39,916 nt of DNA, taken from the NCBI GenBank assembly GCA_018829335.1, contig JAHJUD010000054.1, positions 1 through 39,916 of the forward strand, read 5' to 3'. The notes under the pieces were generated by a model. It worked only from the letters and a program-made list of their open reading frames with translations. It did no database searches and was not told the origin of the DNA. The stretch's first letter is position 1. Every line of letters begins with the position of its first letter. Shown here piece by piece: positions 3,936 to 33,936 of the stretch. This DNA comes from Candidatus Micrarchaeota archaeon. GTDB taxonomy: Archaea; Iainarchaeota; Iainarchaeia; Iainarchaeales; 1-14-0-10-31-34. The position numbers and the translations under genes are program-made.

Positions 3936-4961
3936 TTGGGAGATCCAAAAAAAACAAAAAAGAAATATGTTAAACCCAGAAGGCCATGGAATAAAACAAG
4001 ATTAGACGAAGAAAGAACAGTAAAAGAAACATACGGCCTGAAAAACAAGAAAGAGTTATGGATGCTTGAACAAAAACTGAAAAACAAAAGGCAGAATGCA
4101 AGAAAACTGCTTGCATTAGAATTAGAGCAAAGAATACAAAGAGAAAAAGAATTAGTTGACAGCCTGAAAAGAATAGGCATACTAAAAGAAAACGCTTCAT
4201 TAGATGATGTACTAGGATTAAAAATAGAGGAATTCCTTGAAAGAAGACTACAGACAATAATATGGAGAAAAGGGTTAGCTAATACGCCAAAACAGGCAAG
4301 GCAATTTATTGTTCACGGACACATAGCAATAAAAGGAAAAAAAATAACAGTCCCATCATATACTGTTAAAGCAGAAGAAGAAAACAATATTTCATATTAC
4401 GGAAAAGAAATGAAAATAAAAACAGAAAAACCAAAAACAAAAAAAGACCTGAAAAAAGAATTCGAAAAAACAAAAGAAAAAACAGAAAGCCAAGAAAAAA
4501 AAGAAGAAAAAGCAAAAGAAAAACCGGTTTCCAAAGAAGAAAAAGTGATTAAGAAAAAAGAAGAACCAAAAGAAAAAAAAGAAGAAAAGAAAACAGAAAC
4601 AAAAAAAGAAGAAACTGAAGAAAAACCCAAAAAAGAAGATTCAAAAAAAAAGCCGGAAGAAAAAAAGAAAGAAGAAATTGCTAAAGAAAATTCCGAAGAA
4701 AAAAAAGAGATTAAAAAAGAAGAATTAAAAGAAGAAAAAGAATCAAAGGAAACAAAAAAAGAAAAAACAGAGGAAAAAATCTCTGAAGAAAAGAAAGAAG
4801 ACAAAAAAATTCAAAAAGAAAAAGAAACCAAAGAAGAAAAGAAAATAGAAAATACAAAAGAAAAAAAAGAAACCTCAAAAAAAGAAGAATTAAAAGAAGA
4901 AAAAAAAGAAGAAGACACAAAAGGGAAAGCTGAAGAAGAAAAAGAAGGTGCAGAAAAATGA
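3936..4961 (+). CDS. rps4: 30S ribosomal protein uS4 with ~180-aa E/K-rich C-terminal extension
   Basis: MGDPK, YGLKNKKELW, LERRLQT, ARQFIVHGHI; TTG start after GGTGA SD. Confidence 0.96.
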   Translation: MGDPKKTKKKYVKPRRPWNKTRLDEERTVKETYGLKNKKELWMLEQKLKNKRQNARKLLALELEQRIQREKELVDSLKRIGILKENASLDDVLGLKIEEFLERRLQTIIWRKGLANTPKQARQFIVHGHIAIKGKKITVPSYTVKAEEENNISYYGKEMKIKTEKPKTKKDLKKEFEKTKEKTESQEKKEEKAKEKPVSKEEKVIKKKEEPKEKKEEKKTETKKEETEEKPKKEDSKKKPEEKKKEEIAKENSEEKKEIKKEELKEEKESKETKKEKTEEKISEEKKEDKKIQKEKETKEEKKIENTKEKKETSKKEELKEEKKEEDTKGKAEEEKEGAEK

Positions 4962-5341
4962 GTAAAAAAGGAATAATACACATTTATGCATCACATAACA
5001 ATACAATAATATTGCTTACAGATATTACAGGACAAGAAACAATAGCAAAATGTTCTGGAGGAGTAGTAGTAAAAGCACAACACAAAGAAGGCTCTCCTTA
5101 TGCAGCAATGAAAGTAGCAGAAATAGTTGCAGAAAAAGCAAGAGAAAAAGGAATCACAGAAATAATAGTTAAAGTAAGAGGTCAAGGCGGAATAAGATCA
5201 AAAAATCCAGGCCAAGGAGCAGAAGCCGCAATAAGAAGCATTACAAGAGCAGGATTAAGGATTAAAACAATAGAAAACGTTACTCCAATGCCACACAACG
5301 GCTGCAGGAAAAAAAAGAGATTTAGAGGAAAGAAAAAATAA
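4958..5341 (+). CDS. rps11: 30S ribosomal protein uS11
   Basis: HIYASHNNTI, SPYAAM, PGQGAEAAIR, VTPMPHNGCR. Confidence 0.97.
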   Translation: MSKKGIIHIYASHNNTIILLTDITGQETIAKCSGGVVVKAQHKEGSPYAAMKVAEIVAEKAREKGITEIIVKVRGQGGIRSKNPGQGAEAAIRSITRAGLRIKTIENVTPMPHNGCRKKKRFRGKKK

Positions 5342-5962: not shown

Positions 5963-6109
5963 GCAGGGGTACCCAAGCGGTCAACGGGGCAGGACTTAAG
6001 AAAACTTTTGAAAAAAGTTTTATCAAAAGAACAAAAAAAACTTTTTAAAAAAAGTTCGAAGAAATCCTGTGGCTTAGTGCCTTCGAGAGTTCGAATCTCT
6101 CCTCCTGCA
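5963..6109 (+). tRNA. tRNA-Leu(UAA) with 63-nt intron at position 37/38 (intron 6001-6063)
   Basis: Acceptor GCAGGGG/CTCCTGC+A73; anticodon arm CAGGA-CT-TAA-G^A-TCCTG; long variable arm GGC-TTAGT-GCC; T arm GAGAG-TTCGAAT-CTCTC; no encoded CCA. Confidence 0.93.
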
Positions 6110-6110
6110 T

Positions 6111-6204
6111 AAATGTTTCGCCGTTTAAGCACAAAGTCCAGCATAAAGCTGGACTAGCACGGTTTTATGCCGTGCACCGTGACTCGCGAGCGGAATCGCG
6201 AAAA
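6111..6204 (+). repeat. 94-nt GC-rich multi-hairpin repeat element, copy 1
   Basis: 85/94 identical to the reverse complement of 32706-32799; hairpins AGTCCAGC-ATAAA-GCTGGACT and GCACGGT-TTTAT-GCCGTGC; near-terminal TTTCGC/GCGAAA inverted repeat. Confidence 0.92.
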
Positions 6205-6216
6205 AAGTGAAAAAAA

Positions 6217-6573
6217 ATGAAAAGAACAGGACCAACAAAAGAAAAAACAAGAAAAACAATTTTCCTCTTGAAAAAAGAAGGAAAAAATAAAGATTTATGG
6301 AAAGAAGTAGCCAAAAGAATAAACGCCCCAAGAAGAAAAAGGATTAACATTAATTTATGGAAACTAGAAAAGCTTTCAGCAAAATTCCAGAATAAAACTT
6401 TTCTTGTAACCGGAAAAGTTTTAGCTAAAGGAGAAATAACAAAAGCAATAAATGTTGCTGCATTAGAGTTCTCAGAAAAAGCAAAAGAAAAAATAAACAA
6501 CGCAAAAGGAAAAACATTCAGTTTAGAAGAAGCAACGAAAATAAAAGCATCAGAATTAATGCTTGTAAAATAA
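6217..6573 (+). CDS. rpl18e: 50S ribosomal protein eL18
   Basis: LWKEVAKRI..PRRKRININL.KL, GKVLAKG, VAALEFSEKA.EKI. Confidence 0.96.
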   Translation: MKRTGPTKEKTRKTIFLLKKEGKNKDLWKEVAKRINAPRRKRININLWKLEKLSAKFQNKTFLVTGKVLAKGEITKAINVAALEFSEKAKEKINNAKGKTFSLEEATKIKASELMLVK

Positions 6574-7009: not shown

Positions 7010-7708
7010 ATGACAGAAACTGAAAAAAAAGAAGAAAAAATTCCTGTAAAAGACGAATCCAAAGAAAAAACAGAAGAAAAGAAAACAGAAATTGAAGAAA
7101 AAAAGAAAGAAGAAACCCCAAAAGAAAAAGCTGAAGAAAAAAAAGACCCCAAAAAAGAAATTAAAAAAGTACACGAAGAAAAAAATAAGGAAACAGTCAA
7201 AGAAAAGAAAACAGAAAAAGAACCAAAAGAAAACAAAACAGAAGAAATTGAAGAAGAAACTGAAACAGTTTCAAAAAAAAGCAAGAAAAAGAAAGTCAAA
7301 AGAAGCAAAAAGTATGGAATGCTTGTAAAATCAAAAAAGAAAGAAGCTATTGCAAGAGCAGTAATAAAAACAGGCAAAGGAAGAATAACAGTAAACAAAA
7401 AAAACATTGAATTCCTTGAGCCAGAATACGCAAAAGAACTTATTTTTGAGCCGGTAAAGCTTGCAGGAGACACAATAAAAGAAACAGACATAAAAATAAT
7501 CGTAAAAGGCGGAGGATTTATGGGGCAAGCAGTGGCTGCAAGAAGCGTAATAGCTAAAGCAATAGTGGAATACACTAACGACAAAAAATTAAAAGAAAAA
7601 TTCATTAAATACGACAGGCTGTTAATGGTTGATGACCACAGAAGAGTTGAACCAAAAAAGCCTTTAGGAACAAAGGCAAGAAAAAAGAAGCAGAGCTCAA
7701 AGAGGTGA
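7010..7708 (+). CDS. rps9: 30S ribosomal protein uS9 with ~100-aa E/K-rich N-terminal extension
   Basis: [45 protein letters not shown]. Confidence 0.96.
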
Positions 7709-11657: not shown

Positions 11658-13352
11658 ATGGACGAAAAACTAAAAGAAATGACATTCAAGTATGCAGTAA
11701 AAAATGCAGCAGAACATTTAGGTAAAGCAGACTTAAAAGCAGTAATAGGAAAATTAGTGGCAATAGATAAAGAATTAGGCAAAAATTTAGGCAAACACAT
11801 AAAAGAAATAACAGAAATAGTCGAAAAAGTAAATGCAATGGACAAAAAAACATTAGAAGAAAAATTCAGTTCATTTGAAAGTTTTAATGAGCTTCCTGAA
11901 AGAGAAAAAAAAGAAGAAATGTTTTTGGATTGGGCAGACAAACAAAGAGTAGTTACAAGATATGCTCCTAATCCAAATGGGCCGTTTCATTTAGGCAATG
12001 CAAGAGCTTTATTGATGTCTTATGATTATGCAAGAAAATACAAAGGAAAATTTATTTTAAGGTTTGATGATACCGATCCTAAAGTAAAAAAATCAATTAA
12101 AGAACCAGAAAAAGTATTTAAAAAAGACTTGGATTGGCTTGGAGTAAAAGTAGACGAAACATTTTTTGCCTCTGACAGAATGGAAATATACTATAATTAC
12201 ATGAAAAAAATTATTTCAATGGATAAAGCTTATGTATGCAAATGCGAAAAAGAAAAATGGAAAGAAAAAATTGATGAAAACAAATCCTGTAAATGCAGGG
12301 AAAAAAATTCTAAAGAGCAGTTAAAAGAATTCGAAAAAATGCTTTCACATGAATTAAAGGAAGGCACAGCTGTTTTAAGGATTAAAACAGATTTGGACGC
12401 AAAAGACCCTTCTTTAAGGGACTGGTGGGCGGCAAAAATAGTTGACAACCCAGAGCACCCAAGAGTTGGAGACAAATATAAAGTATGGCCTTCATATAAT
12501 TTTGCTTCAGCAACAGACGACCATGAAATGGGAATAACCCTGATAATTAGAGGGCAAGAGCATGCACAAAATGCAGAAAAACAAAAATTTTTGTATAAAT
12601 ATTTTAATTGGGTTTATCCTGAAACATTTCATACAGGAAGAATTAAACTAAAAGAAATGGTTTTAAGCACATCCAAAATAAAAGAAGGCATTGAAAAAGG
12701 AATTTATTTTGGCTGGGATGATCCTCGCTTGGGAACAATACAGGCTTTGAGAAGAAGAGGGTTTAATCCTAACACAATAAAAGAAATCATTAAAGAAATA
12801 GGAGTGAAAAGCTCTGATGTCACAGTTGATTTCTCCAGAATCGTTGATGTAAATAAAGGATTTATTGACGCAAAATCTGACAGGTATTATTTTATTGAAG
12901 ACCCAATAAAATTAGAAGTGAATTTTGTGCCTGAAATGCAAATAGAAAAACCATTGCACCCAGATTACCCTGATCAAACCAAAACATATGAGGTAAGCAA
13001 AGGAACACAGACTTTTTTGATTTCAAGAAAACAAACAGAAAAACTTGAATTAGGAAAAATTGCAAGATTAAAACATGCATTAAATTTTCGTGTAATAAGA
13101 AAAGACGAAATGCAGATTTTTGGAGAATTTGTTGGAATACAAAAACTAGAGAATAAAACTTTGATTCCATGGATTTTAAAAGAAACTTCAGCCGAAATAA
13201 TGATGGATAATGCAGTAAAAAAACATGGAATAATTGAAAAAGAAATTCTCGAAGAAAAAGAAGGAAATACTATTCAATTAGAAAACTTTGGATACGCAAG
13301 AATAGACGAAATAGAAAAAGAAAAAATTGTTTTATGGTTTGCGCACAAATAA
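11658..13352 (+). CDS. gltX: Glutamate--tRNA ligase (archaeal type)
   Basis: TRYAPNPNGPFHLGNAR (HIGH), LRFDDTDP, IRGQEH, LSTSK, GWDDPRLGT. Confidence 0.97.
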   Translation: MDEKLKEMTFKYAVKNAAEHLGKADLKAVIGKLVAIDKELGKNLGKHIKEITEIVEKVNAMDKKTLEEKFSSFESFNELPEREKKEEMFLDWADKQRVVTRYAPNPNGPFHLGNARALLMSYDYARKYKGKFILRFDDTDPKVKKSIKEPEKVFKKDLDWLGVKVDETFFASDRMEIYYNYMKKIISMDKAYVCKCEKEKWKEKIDENKSCKCREKNSKEQLKEFEKMLSHELKEGTAVLRIKTDLDAKDPSLRDWWAAKIVDNPEHPRVGDKYKVWPSYNFASATDDHEMGITLIIRGQEHAQNAEKQKFLYKYFNWVYPETFHTGRIKLKEMVLSTSKIKEGIEKGIYFGWDDPRLGTIQALRRRGFNPNTIKEIIKEIGVKSSDVTVDFSRIVDVNKGFIDAKSDRYYFIEDPIKLEVNFVPEMQIEKPLHPDYPDQTKTYEVSKGTQTFLISRKQTEKLELGKIARLKHALNFRVIRKDEMQIFGEFVGIQKLENKTLIPWILKETSAEIMMDNAVKKHGIIEKEILEEKEGNTIQLENFGYARIDEIEKEKIVLWFAHK

Positions 13353-13362
13353 GCAAAAAAAA

Positions 13363-13409
13363 ACACCTTTTCCAAAAGGTGTAACAAAATGTACGGCGTA
13401 AAGCCGTAC
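13363..13409. repeat. Tandem perfect hairpins ACACCTTTT-CC-AAAAGGTGT(+AACAAAA) and GTACGGC-GTAAA-GCCGTAC
   Basis: Directly visible palindromes after the gltX stop; each resembles a hairpin type at 6001-6204. Confidence 0.75.
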
Positions 13410-13468
13410 TGAAAAAATAAAGAAAAGCAAAGGATTAAAAGAAACAAAAAACAAATTAATGAAGGAAA

Positions 13469-30655: not shown

Positions 30656-32533
30656 ATGAGTAAAGTGATTGGTATTGATCTCGGCACAAGTAATTCTGCA
30701 GCAGCAGTATTAGAAGGAGGAAAACCAAAAATAATTCCTTCAGCTGAAGGCGCAAGTTTGTATGGAAAAGCTTTTCCTTCTGTTGTGGCTTTTACAAAAG
30801 ACGGGCAAATGCTTGTAGGAGAACCGGCAAAAAGACAGGCAGTAAGCAATCCAGAAGGAACAATTACTGGCGCAAAAAGAAAAATGGGAACTTCATTCAA
30901 ATACAAAGCCCAAGGAAAAGAATATACCCCTCAACAGATTTCTGCTTTTATTTTACAAAAAATAAAAAAAGACGCTGAAAGCTTTTTAGGAGAAAAAATA
31001 GAAAAAGCAGTTATAACAGTTCCAGCATATTTTGACGACAACCAAAGACAAGCAACAAAAGACGCAGGAAAAATTGCAGGATTAGAAGTTATTAGAATTG
31101 TAAATGAACCAACTGCAGCATCACTTGCTTATGGATTAGACAAAAAAGGAAAAGACAGGAAAATTTTAGTGTTTGATTTTGGCGGAGGAACATTAGATGT
31201 AACAGTAATGGAATTCGGCGACGGAGTATTTGAAGTAAAATCAACTTCAGGAGACACTCAATTAGGCGGAAGAGACATGGACGAGGTTGTACAAAAATAC
31301 ATTATAGAAAAATTCAAAACAGAAGAAGCAGCAGACTTAACAAAAGACAAAATGGCAATGCAAAGATTAAATGAAGCAGCAGAAAAAGCAAAAATTGAAT
31401 TAAGCAATGTAATTGAAACAGAAATTAATCTGCCTTATATTACTGTAACACAAGAAGGCCCAAAACATTTAGTAATGAAATTAAACAAAGCAAAATTAGA
31501 AGAATTAGTTAAACCAATTGTTTCAAAATGCGAAAAACCAGTAAACCATGCTCTTGCAGACGCAAAACTTACTCCGGCAGAAATAGACAAAGTAATAATG
31601 GTCGGAGGCCCTACAAGAATGCCTATAGTACAAGAATTCGTGGAAAAAATCGTAGGCAAAAAAGTTGAAAGAGGAATTGACCCAATGGAATGCGTTGCAA
31701 TGGGTGCAGCAGTACAGGCAGGAGTATTATCAGGAGAAGTAAAAGATATTTTATTGCTTGATGTAACTCCATTAAGTTTGGGAATAGAAACTCTTGGAGG
31801 AGTTTTTACAAAACAAATTGAAAGAAACACTACTATTCCAACAAAAAAAAGCCAGATTTTTTCAACTGCAGCAGACAATCAGACTGCAGTAGACATTCAT
31901 GTATTACAAGGAGAAAGAACAATGGCTTCAGACAACAAAACTTTAGGAAGATTCCAGTTAATTGGAATTCCTCCTGCGCCTCGTGGGATACCTCAAATTG
32001 AAGTGACTTTTGACATTGATGCAAACGGAATAGTGCATGTAACAGCAAAAGACATGGGAACAGGAAAAAGCCAGAAAATTTCAATTGTTGCATCAGAGAA
32101 ATTAAATGAAACAGAAATAGAAAAAATGAAAAAAGAAGCAGAACAGTTTGCTGAAACAGACAAAAAGAAAAAAGAAGAAATAGACACAATTAATCAGGCA
32201 GATGCAATAGTATACCAGACAGAAAAAACTTTGAAAGACATGGAAGGAAAAGTTGACTCAAAAAAAATTCAGGGAATAAAAGATGAAGTAGCAGAACTCA
32301 AAAAACTGCTTGAACCAAAAGAAAAAGATGTTACAGCAATCAAAACAAAATTAGATGAAGTGAATAAATTATTTCAGGAAGCTTCAACTGAATTATACCA
32401 GAAAGCCTCTCAACAAGCACAAGGGCAAACAGGAGAAAAAGAAGAAAAAAACAAAGACGAAAAAGTAGTTGACGCAGACTATAAAATGGAAGACGAAAAC
32501 AAAGACGAAAAAAAAGAAAAAAAGAAAAAATAA
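30656..32533 (+). CDS. dnaK: Molecular chaperone DnaK (Hsp70)
   Basis: [58 protein letters not shown]. Confidence 0.98.
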
Positions 32534-32705
32534 GGAAAAAAAGAACCGAAAAAATAAATTCAAATAAAAAAAGCAAAATCAGAAAAAGAAGAAAATAGTT
32601 GAAAAAAATTAAAAAGAAAAAAATAATTTAAAAACCCTCGCGAAAAAAAAAGGAAAGGAAAAAAAATAATTCAGGTTAAATTACTTTCCTTCCTTTTTTT
32701 TATTC

Positions 32706-32799
32706 TTTTCGCGATTCCGCTCGCGAGCCACGGTGCACGCCGTAAAGGCGTGCTAGTCCAGCTTTATGCTGGACCTCGTGCTCAAACGGCGAAACGTTT
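32706..32799 (-). repeat. 94-nt GC-rich multi-hairpin repeat element, copy 2 (inverted relative to copy 1)
   Basis: Reverse complement is 85/94 identical to 6111-6204; hairpins GCACGCC-GTAAA-GGCGTGC and GTCCAGC-TTTAT-GCTGGAC. Confidence 0.92.
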
Positions 32800-32811
32800 G
32801 CGTGACAGTTT

Positions 32812-33936
32812 ATGAGTGAGAAAAGAGAGTATTACGAAATTTTAGGATTAAAAAAAGGCGCTTCAATTCAAGAAGTAAAAGAAGCCTACAAAAAACTGGC
32901 AAAAAAATACCATCCGGATATATCCAAAGAAGAAAACGCAGAAGAAAAATTCAAAGAAGTATTAGAAGCTTATTCTGTTTTAAGCAATCCGCAAAAAAAA
33001 GAAAATTACGATAAATTCGGCCATGCGGCAGAAGGCTTTCAAGGATATGGCGGATTTGGAGGCCAAGGATTTGATTTTTCTGCAATGGACTTTGATTTCG
33101 ATGACTTATTCAAGAATTTTGGCTTTGGAGACATTTTTGGTTCAAGGCAGAGAAGAGGGCCAAGAAAAGGAGTTGACTTAAGGTTTGACTTAAGCATTGA
33201 ATTTGAGGAATCAGCTTTTGGAGTAAAAAAAGAAATTGAAATAGAAAGAATTGAAGCATGCGATAAATGCAGTGGTTCTGGATCAGAAAAAGAAGAAGAC
33301 CTGGTTTCTTGTTCTCAATGCAATGGAACAGGAATGCAGACTCACTCGCAAAGAACTCCTTTTGGAACATTTAATACAAGAACTACCTGCAGGAAATGCA
33401 GAGGAGAAGGAAGAACAGTAAAAAATCCCTGCACTAAATGCAATGGAACAGGAAGAATAAGAAAAAAAAGAAAAATAACTGTTGCAATTCCAGAAGGAAT
33501 ACAAAACGGTGCATATTTAAGATTAAGAAATGAAGGAAATGCAGGAGAAAGAGGCGCAGGAAACGGAGACTTATATGTTGTAATATTCATTGAACCCCAT
33601 GAATTCTTTAAAAGAGATGAAGCAGACATTTACGGAGAAGTGCCAATAACTTTTTCTTTGGCTGCATTAGGCGGAGAAATTGATGTTCCTACATTAAAAG
33701 GAAAAGCAAAATTAAAAGTCCCTTCAGGAACACAGACAGGAACAATTTTCAGATTAAAAGAAAAAGGAATAAAAGACATTGAAGAAGGCGGTTTTGGAGA
33801 CGAATACATTAAAGTTATTTTAAGGACTCCGGAAAAGCTTTCAAAAAAACAAAAAGAATTATTTGAGGAATTAAAAGAAGGGGAAAAAACAACAGAAAAC
33901 GGTTTTTTTAAGAAATTCAAGAAAGTATTTAAGTGA
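32812..33936 (+). CDS. dnaJ: Molecular chaperone DnaJ
   Basis: J domain with HPD, G/F-rich region, four CxxCxGxG repeats. Confidence 0.98.

Follow-up and report, generated by a model that had tools for sequence, protein, structure and literature searches.

We examine here a 94-nt sequence at positions 6111 to 6204 of a 39,916-nt stretch of archaeal DNA (hereafter the window; contig JAHJUD010000054.1 of assembly GCA_018829335.1), which recurs as an inverted copy between dnaK and dnaJ of the same stretch. The host belongs to a Candidatus (Ca.) Iainarchaeum-like genus of the Iainarchaeota/Diapherotrites, among the DPANN archaea. We consider it probable that this sequence is not a gene but a composite drawn from a modular family of hairpins similar to the repetitive extragenic palindromic (REP), BIME and REPIN elements, whose members are co-transcribed in spacers that undergo processing and perhaps cap the RNA ends left there. 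A preliminary description, made from the letters of the window, had proposed either a REP-like element or a MITE (miniature inverted-repeat transposable element), or else a new non-coding RNA (ncRNA). The feature that it singled out is real and the observation is confirmed, whereas its REP-like reading proved half right, and it missed both the modularity of the family and its tie to stable-RNA genes. What we observed directly is the anatomy of the element, the copy number of the family, a rule of placement, compensatory variation in the stems, restriction to a genus and the presence or absence of one copy between dnaK and dnaJ.

A repeat search of the window returned one long inverted pair, 6111-6216 against 32694-32799 (106 nt, 89% complementary), and most of what had been said of its two copies is exact. 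Over the 94 nt they differ at nine positions (6114, 6127, 6133, 6135, 6162, 6163, 6168, 6170 and 6182), they are GC-rich on an AT-rich background (GC fractions of 0.50 and 0.57, versus 0.323 for the window), and each stops 12 nt short of a start codon, the ATG of eL18 at 6217 for copy 1 and that of dnaJ at 32812 for copy 2. The two inner hairpins are likewise as described, hairpin 1 reading GTCCAGC/ATAAA/GCTGGAC and hairpin 2 reading GCACGGT/TTTAT/GCCGTGC, and so is the covariation in hairpin 2, where G6162-C6170 becomes C-G in copy 2 and the T6163.G pair becomes C-G. The TTTCGC and GCGAAA motifs near the ends had been taken for inverted repeats; they form the loops and arms of two outer hairpins (6111-6126 and 6184-6201), so the element has four hairpins rather than two. 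On both strands, the folds of both copies beat all 200 dinucleotide shuffles (z from -3.3 to -5.4), and the window holds four perfect GC hairpins with 7-bp stems and 5-nt loops, compared with a mean of 0.1 and a maximum of one in 50 shuffles. Copy 1 fills the spacer between tRNA-Leu and eL18 from the first base past the tRNA discriminator to 12 nt before eL18, and relative to the genes beside them the two copies point in opposite directions.

The host genome, a fragmented metagenome bin of 158 contigs (1.45 Mb, 32% GC), contains many more copies than two, as emerged from the BLAST and covariance-model searches that the preliminary description had suggested. Copy 1 has 26 partial BLAST matches there over differing sub-segments, and a covariance model of the doublet core (model R1) has 59 matches when both strands and weaker single hairpins are included. 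Among the strong matches listed, we count 16 distinct double-hairpin doublets with a CTAG centre. A genome-wide definition of GC hairpins (7 bp, 5-nt loop, at most one mismatch and at least four G/C per arm) yields 315, of which 84 have family loops; 59 of these 84 lie outside crude open reading frame (ORF) calls.

These copies are mosaics of exchangeable modules. Module A has the form AAACG/TTTCGC/CGTTT plus RAGCAC, the inner 7-bp GC hairpins have variable stems and loops of ATAAA, GTAAA, CTAAA, ACAAG, TGAAA or their complements, and module D combines a variable stem with an SCGRAA loop. Because module A is the mirror of module D, the 94-nt element resolves into two units of about 46 nt, inverted and joined at CTAG, which makes it a REPIN-like doublet. 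The outer part of a unit is a hairpin with a stem base of AAAC/GTTT or TCGCGA and a TTYCGC loop; the rest is a linker, RAGCACGAKG or its mirror, followed by an inner GC hairpin of 7 bp whose loop is RTAAA. Units are found singly, as doublets and in short tandem arrays. Separately, we noted three to five identical units of 39-40 nt (AT hairpin plus GC hairpin) in tandem, with no unique spacers, at C14:22289-22463, C93:6467-6565 and C134:3719-3857 of the host genome, where such arrays lie directly downstream of tRNA-Ser and tRNA-Ile.

The stems vary in a compensated manner. For an alignment of doublet cores we used 27 sources (the window, six loci of the host genome and 20 loci of congeners, the relatives having first been picked by sequence similarity) and accepted cores with two hairpins of at most two mismatches each. 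This gave 22 cores; six of the 27 sources gave none, although three of those hold variant doublets. Standard pairs occupy 98.6% of the cells, 11 of the 14 pairs have changed on both sides (59 cells), none of 500 shuffles reached this pairing, and shifting the partner columns lowers it to 16-41%. When ten of the 22 were given to RNAalifold as full composites, with no structure supplied, it returned four hairpins with 26 pairs, 17 of them compensated; module A is invariant in this set and the other three stems covary. Hairpins with a single mismatch comprise nine A.C, five G.T and seven other cases, which are few and often of unclear transcription direction.

Placement is the second line of evidence. 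Although the zone within 300 nt of the 39 listed tRNA genes makes up 1.8% of the genome, it holds 41 of the 84 family hairpins, compared with 19 of the 231 other hairpins. Units with an outer hairpin follow an orientation rule near tRNA genes: 13 are upstream and inverted, seven are downstream and direct, seven are direct and inside an intron, two are upstream and direct, and none is downstream and inverted. Nearly all of them lie 0-4 nt from the tRNA end with the outer hairpin facing the tRNA, and the nearest inner hairpin lies 25-31 nt from that end because the outer hairpin occupies the gap. In a looser test that asks for any abutting hairpin, one is present at 25 of 38 tRNA 5' ends and 22 of 36 3' ends, versus 13.7% of 3000 random intergenic positions. 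By inspection, 14 of the 16 doublets lie beside or inside stable-RNA genes, namely at tRNA flanks, in a tRNA-Gly(CCC) intron, at RNase P RNA and on either side of 16S rRNA. Only copy 2 and a doublet between convergent genes on contig C93 depart from this. Copy 1 is therefore typical of the family in its placement and copy 2 is atypical. Units are rare in the spacers of protein operons.

ARAGORN with default settings finds no tRNA in the window and, run on the whole genome with introns allowed, still misses tRNA-Leu, while Rfam at gathering thresholds gives no match in the whole window, the tRNA-Leu included. Default tRNA finders probably miss such genes because of their hairpin-filled introns. 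RNase P RNA and Rpp29 are both present in the genome, so leaders can be removed.

Two of the stable-RNA genes have peculiarities of their own. The RNase P RNA match (C84:231-613) is 383-384 nt long in the host genome and in congener G001, compared with 294-324 nt in congeners G005 and G004; in the host genome its 3' end has AT-type hairpin modules close by and is followed immediately by a GC doublet, and in G001 a family hairpin lies inside the matched gene. The 16S rRNA match (C47:383-2615) spans 2233 nt against a model of 1478 positions, an insertion of about 750 nt that might consist of introns, and immediately within the processing complementarity of leader and trailer there is a doublet that includes module A.

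Among relatives, the GC-rich type is limited to one genus in the similarity searches. BLAST with the element finds it in all five genus genomes, in none of three other genera of the family and in none of 32 genomes of other families in the order, and model R1 gives the same picture apart from two weak matches in one sister genus and one in one other family. With the record of the window itself excluded, a search of 185,579 species genomes locates the exact 22-mer of module A at 26 loci in six assemblies. These are five congeners, named Ca. Iainarchaeum/Diapherotrites or 'archaeon', and one contig labelled Nanoarchaeia. By eye, 16 of the 28 exact module A sites in the 26 loci abut a tRNA end, ten of them upstream and inverted and six downstream and direct. 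On the Nanoarchaeia-labelled contig (locus L080, 2616-2637), module A is identical over 22 nt and abuts the 5' end of tRNA-Gly(UCC), and the next tRNA appears to have several introns; this occurrence may reflect mis-binning, a wider distribution or transfer. An AT-rich sister module (a hairpin plus GTTT-DATCAAAA) is present at 7-28 copies per genome in all nine genomes of the taxonomic family and at 1-4 copies in eight of 32 genomes of other families in the order, whereas a reversed-pattern control gives zero everywhere. To judge from these patterns, the GC-rich type looks like a genus-specific derivative of an older cassette.

The family also turns over. Copy 2 is missing from the orthologous dnaK-dnaJ spacer in all five congeners (G001-G005), which marks it as a lineage-specific addition, and the idea of just two copies fixed at orthologous positions, raised earlier as a counter-explanation, fails on this absence and on the many-copy nature of the family. 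The congener spacers keep an AT-rich palindrome and T-run, with about 15-50 nt from there to dnaJ. In the window this palindrome and T-run follow dnaK at about 32644-32701, with copy 2 directly after, and they are possibly a dnaK terminator, a dnaJ promoter or a heat-shock operator. In a metagenome scan with DnaJ the best match has about 82% protein identity, so the insertion is not finely dated. Five metagenome loci include the dnaK-dnaJ spacer (DnaJ 78-81% identical): one (L100) repeats that of G001 letter for letter, two (L102 and L114) are without modules, and the remaining two (L101 and L123, identical to each other) have a different and shorter set of modules, one inner hairpin and one hairpin that abuts the start codon with GTGA in its loop. 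In the dnaJ leaders of the window (32800-32814), of G005 (L045) and of L101, a hairpin ends at the start codon in this way, with GTGA in the loop.

Elsewhere it is the position that is kept and the modules that change. The tRNA-Leu/eL18 spacer has a hairpin directly after the tRNA in all four readable congeners (a contig end interrupts the locus in the fifth), though its modules differ from one to the next, and the module content of the tRNA-Leu intron differs among congeners as well. At seven of the nine differences between the copies in the window, copy 1 has A/T and copy 2 has G/C, the latter being the family consensus; copy 2, as the nearer to that consensus, is therefore the younger copy. 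Upstream of tRNA-Gly(UCC), 24 nt are identical in four genomes, one of which has a differing tRNA, the next hairpin keeps its structure with other stems, and the sequence beyond is unalignable. Such an invariant stretch speaks against plain drift or plain selfishness.

We propose a mechanism whose steps are conditional. Cassettes would be copied and exchanged as DNA through some enzyme or recombination route, and they would survive in those transcribed spacers that are taken out by RNase P, RNase Z and the splicing endonuclease. Being co-transcribed with their neighbours, they would fold as RNA, and a hairpin beside a cleavage site could cap the RNA end left once the tRNA is cut out. For copy 1, a cut by RNase Z would leave a 5' end of the eL18-uL13-uS9 mRNA that starts with module A. 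Capping of this kind might stabilise or insulate the neighbouring transcript, by analogy with REP elements in enterobacterial operons. A 5'-terminal hairpin is a classical shield from decay that depends on the 5' end, and in bacteria the ends of mRNAs are stabilised by REPs. Given a TATA-like box about 30 nt upstream of tRNA-Leu (by eye) and no promoter visible between tRNA-Leu and eL18, copy 1 would most simply be an internal transcribed spacer. Two weak hints point to the RNA level. Both stem substitutions of copy 1 are U.G on the sense strand, and where a hairpin abuts the tRNA 3' end the downstream gene is co-oriented in 18 of 20 cases, versus seven of 12 without one (Fisher p = 0.07).

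Several points weigh against this proposal. For hairpins at tRNA 5' ends, upstream genes are co-oriented in 13 cases and opposite in 11, which is no link at all. Transcription, processing and any stabilising effect of the cassettes are matters that we infer, and no mobilising enzyme was found for the family in the genus genomes searched. The invariance of module A and the mirrored orientation rule also fit a DNA-level or protein-binding role; indeed, the exact conservation of module A at orthologous tRNA sites fits a sequence-specific role, at the DNA level or in protein binding, better than it fits a mere protective hairpin, and the tails of AT-type units sit where a TATA box might be expected. 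Palindromic DNA repeats can hold their arms complementary without any function as RNA. Furthermore, the hairpin catalogues and the core alignment were partly chosen on hairpin formation, which inflates the pairing percentages, and since many of the 158 contigs break in these repeats, the copy counts are lower bounds. The genes are crude long-ORF calls, and the list of 39 tRNA genes is incomplete.

We also entertain, as a doubtful extension, that Iainarchaeota may use a single exchangeable hairpin-cassette system to punctuate their compact polycistronic transcripts. Every site cut by RNase P, RNase Z or the splicing machinery would have a hairpin exactly at it, whose invariant stem base would be recognised by a dedicated protein; RNA ends released on tRNA excision would be capped, and mobile cassettes would serve as raw material for long tRNA introns.

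The features of the window that bear on these arguments are collected below.

Table. Members of the hairpin family and neighbouring features in the window.
Feature	Position	Strand	Basis or remarks
tRNA-Leu(UAA)	5963..6109	+	Rfam tRNA model, 38.1 bits, cut-off 29 (local search)
tRNA-Leu(UAA) intron, ~63 nt	~6001-6063	+	Boundaries by eye; AT-rich hairpin modules of the sister family
AT-type unit in tRNA-Leu intron	6002-6027	+	Sister-module pattern
Copy 1, inverted doublet of two ~46-nt units	6110..6204	+	Repeat search, alignment, RNAalifold
Outer hairpin module A, copy 1	6111..6126	+	Stems AAATG/CGTTT, loop TTTCGC; consensus AAACG...CGTTT; T6110-A6127 may extend the stem
Inner hairpin 1, copy 1	6136..6154	+	7-bp stem, ATAAA loop
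Inner hairpin 2, copy 1	6157..6175	+	7-bp stem with one T.G pair, TTTAT loop; CTAG centre joins it to hairpin 1
Outer hairpin module D, copy 1	6184..6201	+	TCGCGA/GCGGAA/TCGCGA; mirrors module A; stem covaries in relatives
eL18 gene, then uL13 and uS9	6217..6573	+	Pfam Ribosomal_L18/L27A, L13, S9
Third family member, one single unit	13367..13411 (approx.)	+	Model R1 half-match, 20.6 bits
dnaK	30656..32533	+	Pfam HSP70, E 5.9e-228
Copy 2, in the dnaK-dnaJ spacer	32706..32799	-	Same doublet as copy 1
Parts of copy 2	module A 32784-32799; hairpin 1 32756-32774; hairpin 2 32735-32753; module D 32709-32726	-	
GCGTGACAGTTT with GTGA Shine-Dalgarno-like motif	32800..32811	+	Comparison with L101/L123 and G005, by eye
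dnaJ	32812..33936	+	Pfam DnaJ, DnaJ_C, DnaJ_CXXCXGXG

Pfam assigns the neighbours of the two copies to an rpoD-like gene, eL18, uL13 and uS9 and to grpE, dnaK and dnaJ. In the third member, TAACAAAATG links an AT-rich hairpin (CACCTTTT/CC/AAAAGGTG) to a GC hairpin whose loop is GTAAA, and the unit lies in the spacer downstream of an ORF that ends at 13352. The segment GCGTGACAGTTT ahead of dnaJ looks like the 3' half of a hairpin abutting the start codon (AAACTG/GGCGTGA/CAGTTT), which is complete in a relative. Apart from the hairpins, the ORF at 3936-4961 and an N-terminal extension of uS9 contain long, low-complexity coding repeats rich in Lys and Glu (AAG/GAA-type; 4398-4975 and 7010-7300), and these dominate the direct-repeat output for the window.

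A different explanation, to which we grant a small chance of being correct, places the function in the DNA itself. The unit would be a gene-boundary cassette, that is, a promoter, an insulator or a protein-binding site, with the T-rich tail acting as a TATA box at about -30 and the hairpin filling the distance to the start site, or with the palindromes bound by some factor by which stable-RNA genes are marked. What is found upstream of tRNAs lends itself to this: in the AT-rich sister units there, TTTTTGAT starts 25-31 nt before tRNA position +1 in about eight genes, and where a tRNA has no unit, a TATA-like box lies equally far away (both by eye). So do the retention of the AT-type motif in all nine genomes of the taxonomic family (with none in the reversed-pattern control), the sequence invariance of module A and an orientation rule mirrored on both sides of the tRNA, as would be expected of a feature at the DNA level. 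However, GC-type units have CTCGTGCT where the TATA box should be, and the same units in direct orientation inside introns and downstream of tRNAs make no sense as promoters. Compensated stem variation would not be allowed in a site that is bound in duplex form by sequence. A promoter scan decides little here, given that it, like the terminator scan, used only bacterial consensus patterns instead of an archaeal model and is uninformative for an archaeal host.

We assign a slim chance to the family being purely selfish DNA, REP/REPIN- or PATE-like (PATE, palindrome-associated transposable element), that is moved in trans by a hairpin-recognising transposase (HUH/Y1, RAYT-like or IS200 TnpA), in which case the tie to tRNA genes would reflect tolerance or targeting of insertion. 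REPIN-like anatomy, the inverted doublet, near-terminal palindromes, the lack of target duplication and the lineage-specific insertion of copy 2 are all compatible with this. Moreover, PATEs of haloarchaea are described, in the parts of their source that we draw on, as very short, palindrome-ended derivatives of IS605-type elements without target duplications (PMC3119063). It is here that the preliminary description divides. A structured repeat with compensatory variation, many copies and a lineage-specific copy 2 is indeed what we find, whereas the link to HUH or RAYT enzymes is not supported. Searches for Y1_Tnp (PF01797) and TnpB (PF07282) covered five genus genomes, the host and all congeners but G003. 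Y1_Tnp has four matches in the host genome and none in the other four members, which carry the repeats and are 81-96% complete, and TnpB was found in none of the five.

The Y1 genes of the host, the only carrier of an IS200-like gene among those five genomes, behave as ordinary IS200 copies, and the hairpins that flank them are those of the insertion sequence (IS) itself. In a blastn-short search of the host genome, the second IS copy is all that the IS ends match, members of the family giving none, and we saw no single gene flanked by the repeats in RAYT fashion. No more than about 30 nt separate the full, Pfam-confirmed copy (C29:9641-10105) from tRNA-Thr, on the 3' side of the latter; a second copy is split over two contig ends (C30:6-221 with C100:11-262), and C123:3326-3745 is a chimeric Y1 remnant ORF whose C-terminal part resembles the tail of a DDE integrase. 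The suggestion of a MITE fares no better, because we saw no terminal repeats that match an IS and the ends of the element are separate hairpins, not one long pair of terminal repeats. Nor do the flanks of copies 1 and 2 share duplicated bases, as a target duplication would have left, although the exact ends lack a strain-level empty site. Copies that are mosaics instead of uniform full-length units, together with a module A that stays invariant at an orthologous tRNA site in four genomes, also sit poorly with pure selfishness. Because the bins are incomplete, a small door is left open for the HUH route.

It is improbable that the units are substrates or building blocks of the helices cut by the splicing endonuclease (bulge-helix-bulge type), spreading with or as introns of tRNA and rRNA. 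Units do fill tRNA introns, starting at the 5' splice site, and a doublet lies just inside the long leader-trailer complementarity around 16S rRNA. Nevertheless, we saw no bulge-helix-bulge motif at the ends of free-standing copies (by eye, with no formal search), the stems are continuous and without two 3-nt bulges (also by eye), we found complementary units to either side of none of the tRNAs, and RNase P is present.

The proposal of a new, free-standing small ncRNA gene in two copies is highly improbable. A stable predicted fold (z down to -5.4), covarying stems and a sub-threshold match of copy 1 to the Rfam family freshwater-2 had spoken for it. Against that stand the occurrence of copies in both orientations relative to the neighbouring genes, the many mosaics of exchangeable modules and the copies inside introns, which together leave a free-standing new ncRNA unsupported; the synteny of the family is not fixed either, and no promoter or terminator of its own was recognised. 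Nothing in Rfam reaches the gathering score for either copy. The candidate family freshwater-2 (RF02980) gives 28.6 bits for copy 1, versus a gathering score of 49.9, and nothing for copy 2; none of 41 genomes exceeds the cut-off, and three weak matches in relatives are driven by the ribosome-binding site. With permissive E-values, miRNA-like Rfam families match the AT-rich palindrome beside copy 2, and these are chance matches.

An artefact of assembly or binning is scarcely credible: although the bin has 158 contigs and several of them end in repeats, the copies differ at nine positions and have unrelated flanks, the same composite is present in five other assemblies under different record names, and when words were sampled from the 2 kb around copy 1, half of them or more were present in each of eight sequencing runs, which come from several studies (word matches only).

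Given these results, we continue to favour a co-transcribed hairpin family in processed spacers, and we believe that it deserves attention for several reasons. It is unusual for one cassette family to link the leaders, trailers and introns of tRNAs with the flanks of rRNA and RNase P RNA and with the spacers of operons, for its position and orientation at tRNA ends to follow so strict a rule, and for a module of 22-24 nt to be as conserved as the tRNA that it adjoins. The family provides a sequence handle on how archaeal tRNA introns gain and exchange sequence and on the means by which RNAs cut out of shared transcripts are protected or kept apart in ultra-compact genomes. A practical consequence is that its repeats break assemblies. 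Bacterial small palindromic repeats have been studied thoroughly, those of archaea hardly at all, and those of DPANN are not known to have been studied beyond automated MITE counts (PMC11602168); a MITE census gives high densities in some DPANN genomes, with the elements, in its portions used here, not characterised (PMC11602168). In the literature we found no account of tRNA-abutting hairpin cassettes in Iainarchaeota or DPANN, although the supplements of the MITE census and of the PATE report might list such elements.

Several known systems share single traits with this family. Dictyostelium retrotransposons targeted to tRNA genes and yeast Ty3 also insert at a fixed distance and in a fixed orientation beside tRNA genes, on either side, but they are eukaryotic and autonomous, use reverse transcriptase and depend on RNA polymerase III factors, and we saw nothing similar here. 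The pneumococcal BOX and the Correia elements of Neisseria resemble it in having exchangeable sub-modules in variable number, in lying near genes with which they are co-transcribed and in being able to carry expression signals. They differ in being bacterial; a TA duplication and terminal inverted repeats are features of the Correia elements, and none of these repeats is known to have a link with the ends or introns of tRNAs. Transposed tRNA introns in Thermoproteales were reportedly described by Fujishima et al. in 2010, with related sequences at different intron sites implying movement. Unlike those introns, the family here is a hairpin cassette that is also found outside tRNAs, in leaders and trailers, beside rRNA and RNase P RNA and within protein operons, and no bulge-helix-bulge boundary was seen by eye on its free copies. 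As for freshwater-2, which comes from environmental sequence and is a candidate cis-regulatory motif, its 84 model positions are all covered by the alignment with copy 1. The two have in common a pair of neighbouring hairpins, of which the first has an AAUAAG-type loop, and then a third stem and an A-rich stretch ahead of a ribosome-binding site and AUG.

Closer in kind are the PATEs of Haloquadratum walsbyi, which, going by the sections of the source at hand, have no terminal inverted repeats and no target duplication, are as short as 52 bp and form heterogeneous families (PMC3119063). Like the family described here they are archaeal, too short for a transposase gene and equipped with near-terminal palindromes (PMC3119063). 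The palindromes of PATEs resemble the ends of resident IS605-type elements, whereas here the IS200-like ends are unrelated and TnpB is absent from the five genomes searched, and the same sections do not describe PATEs as tRNA-associated (PMC3119063). Together with REP, BIME and REPIN elements they are the closest kinds that we can name, and for both it is on the transposase link that membership fails.

REP, BIME and REPIN elements belong to enterobacteria and pseudomonads, where they are accompanied by RAYT (Y1/HUH) transposases. The archaeal host sets the family apart, as do the lack of a RAYT-type gene flanked by repeats, the fact that no conserved GTAG-like head was identified, and units that take a fixed orientation at tRNA ends and also build tRNA introns. 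Other traits are shared. Both are short, GC-rich, imperfect palindromes, mostly extragenic and in tens of copies, both form inverted doublets and mosaic clusters with defined linkers, and in both the arms vary and yet remain complementary. Finally, both occur inside operons, which is where REPs stabilise the upstream mRNA.

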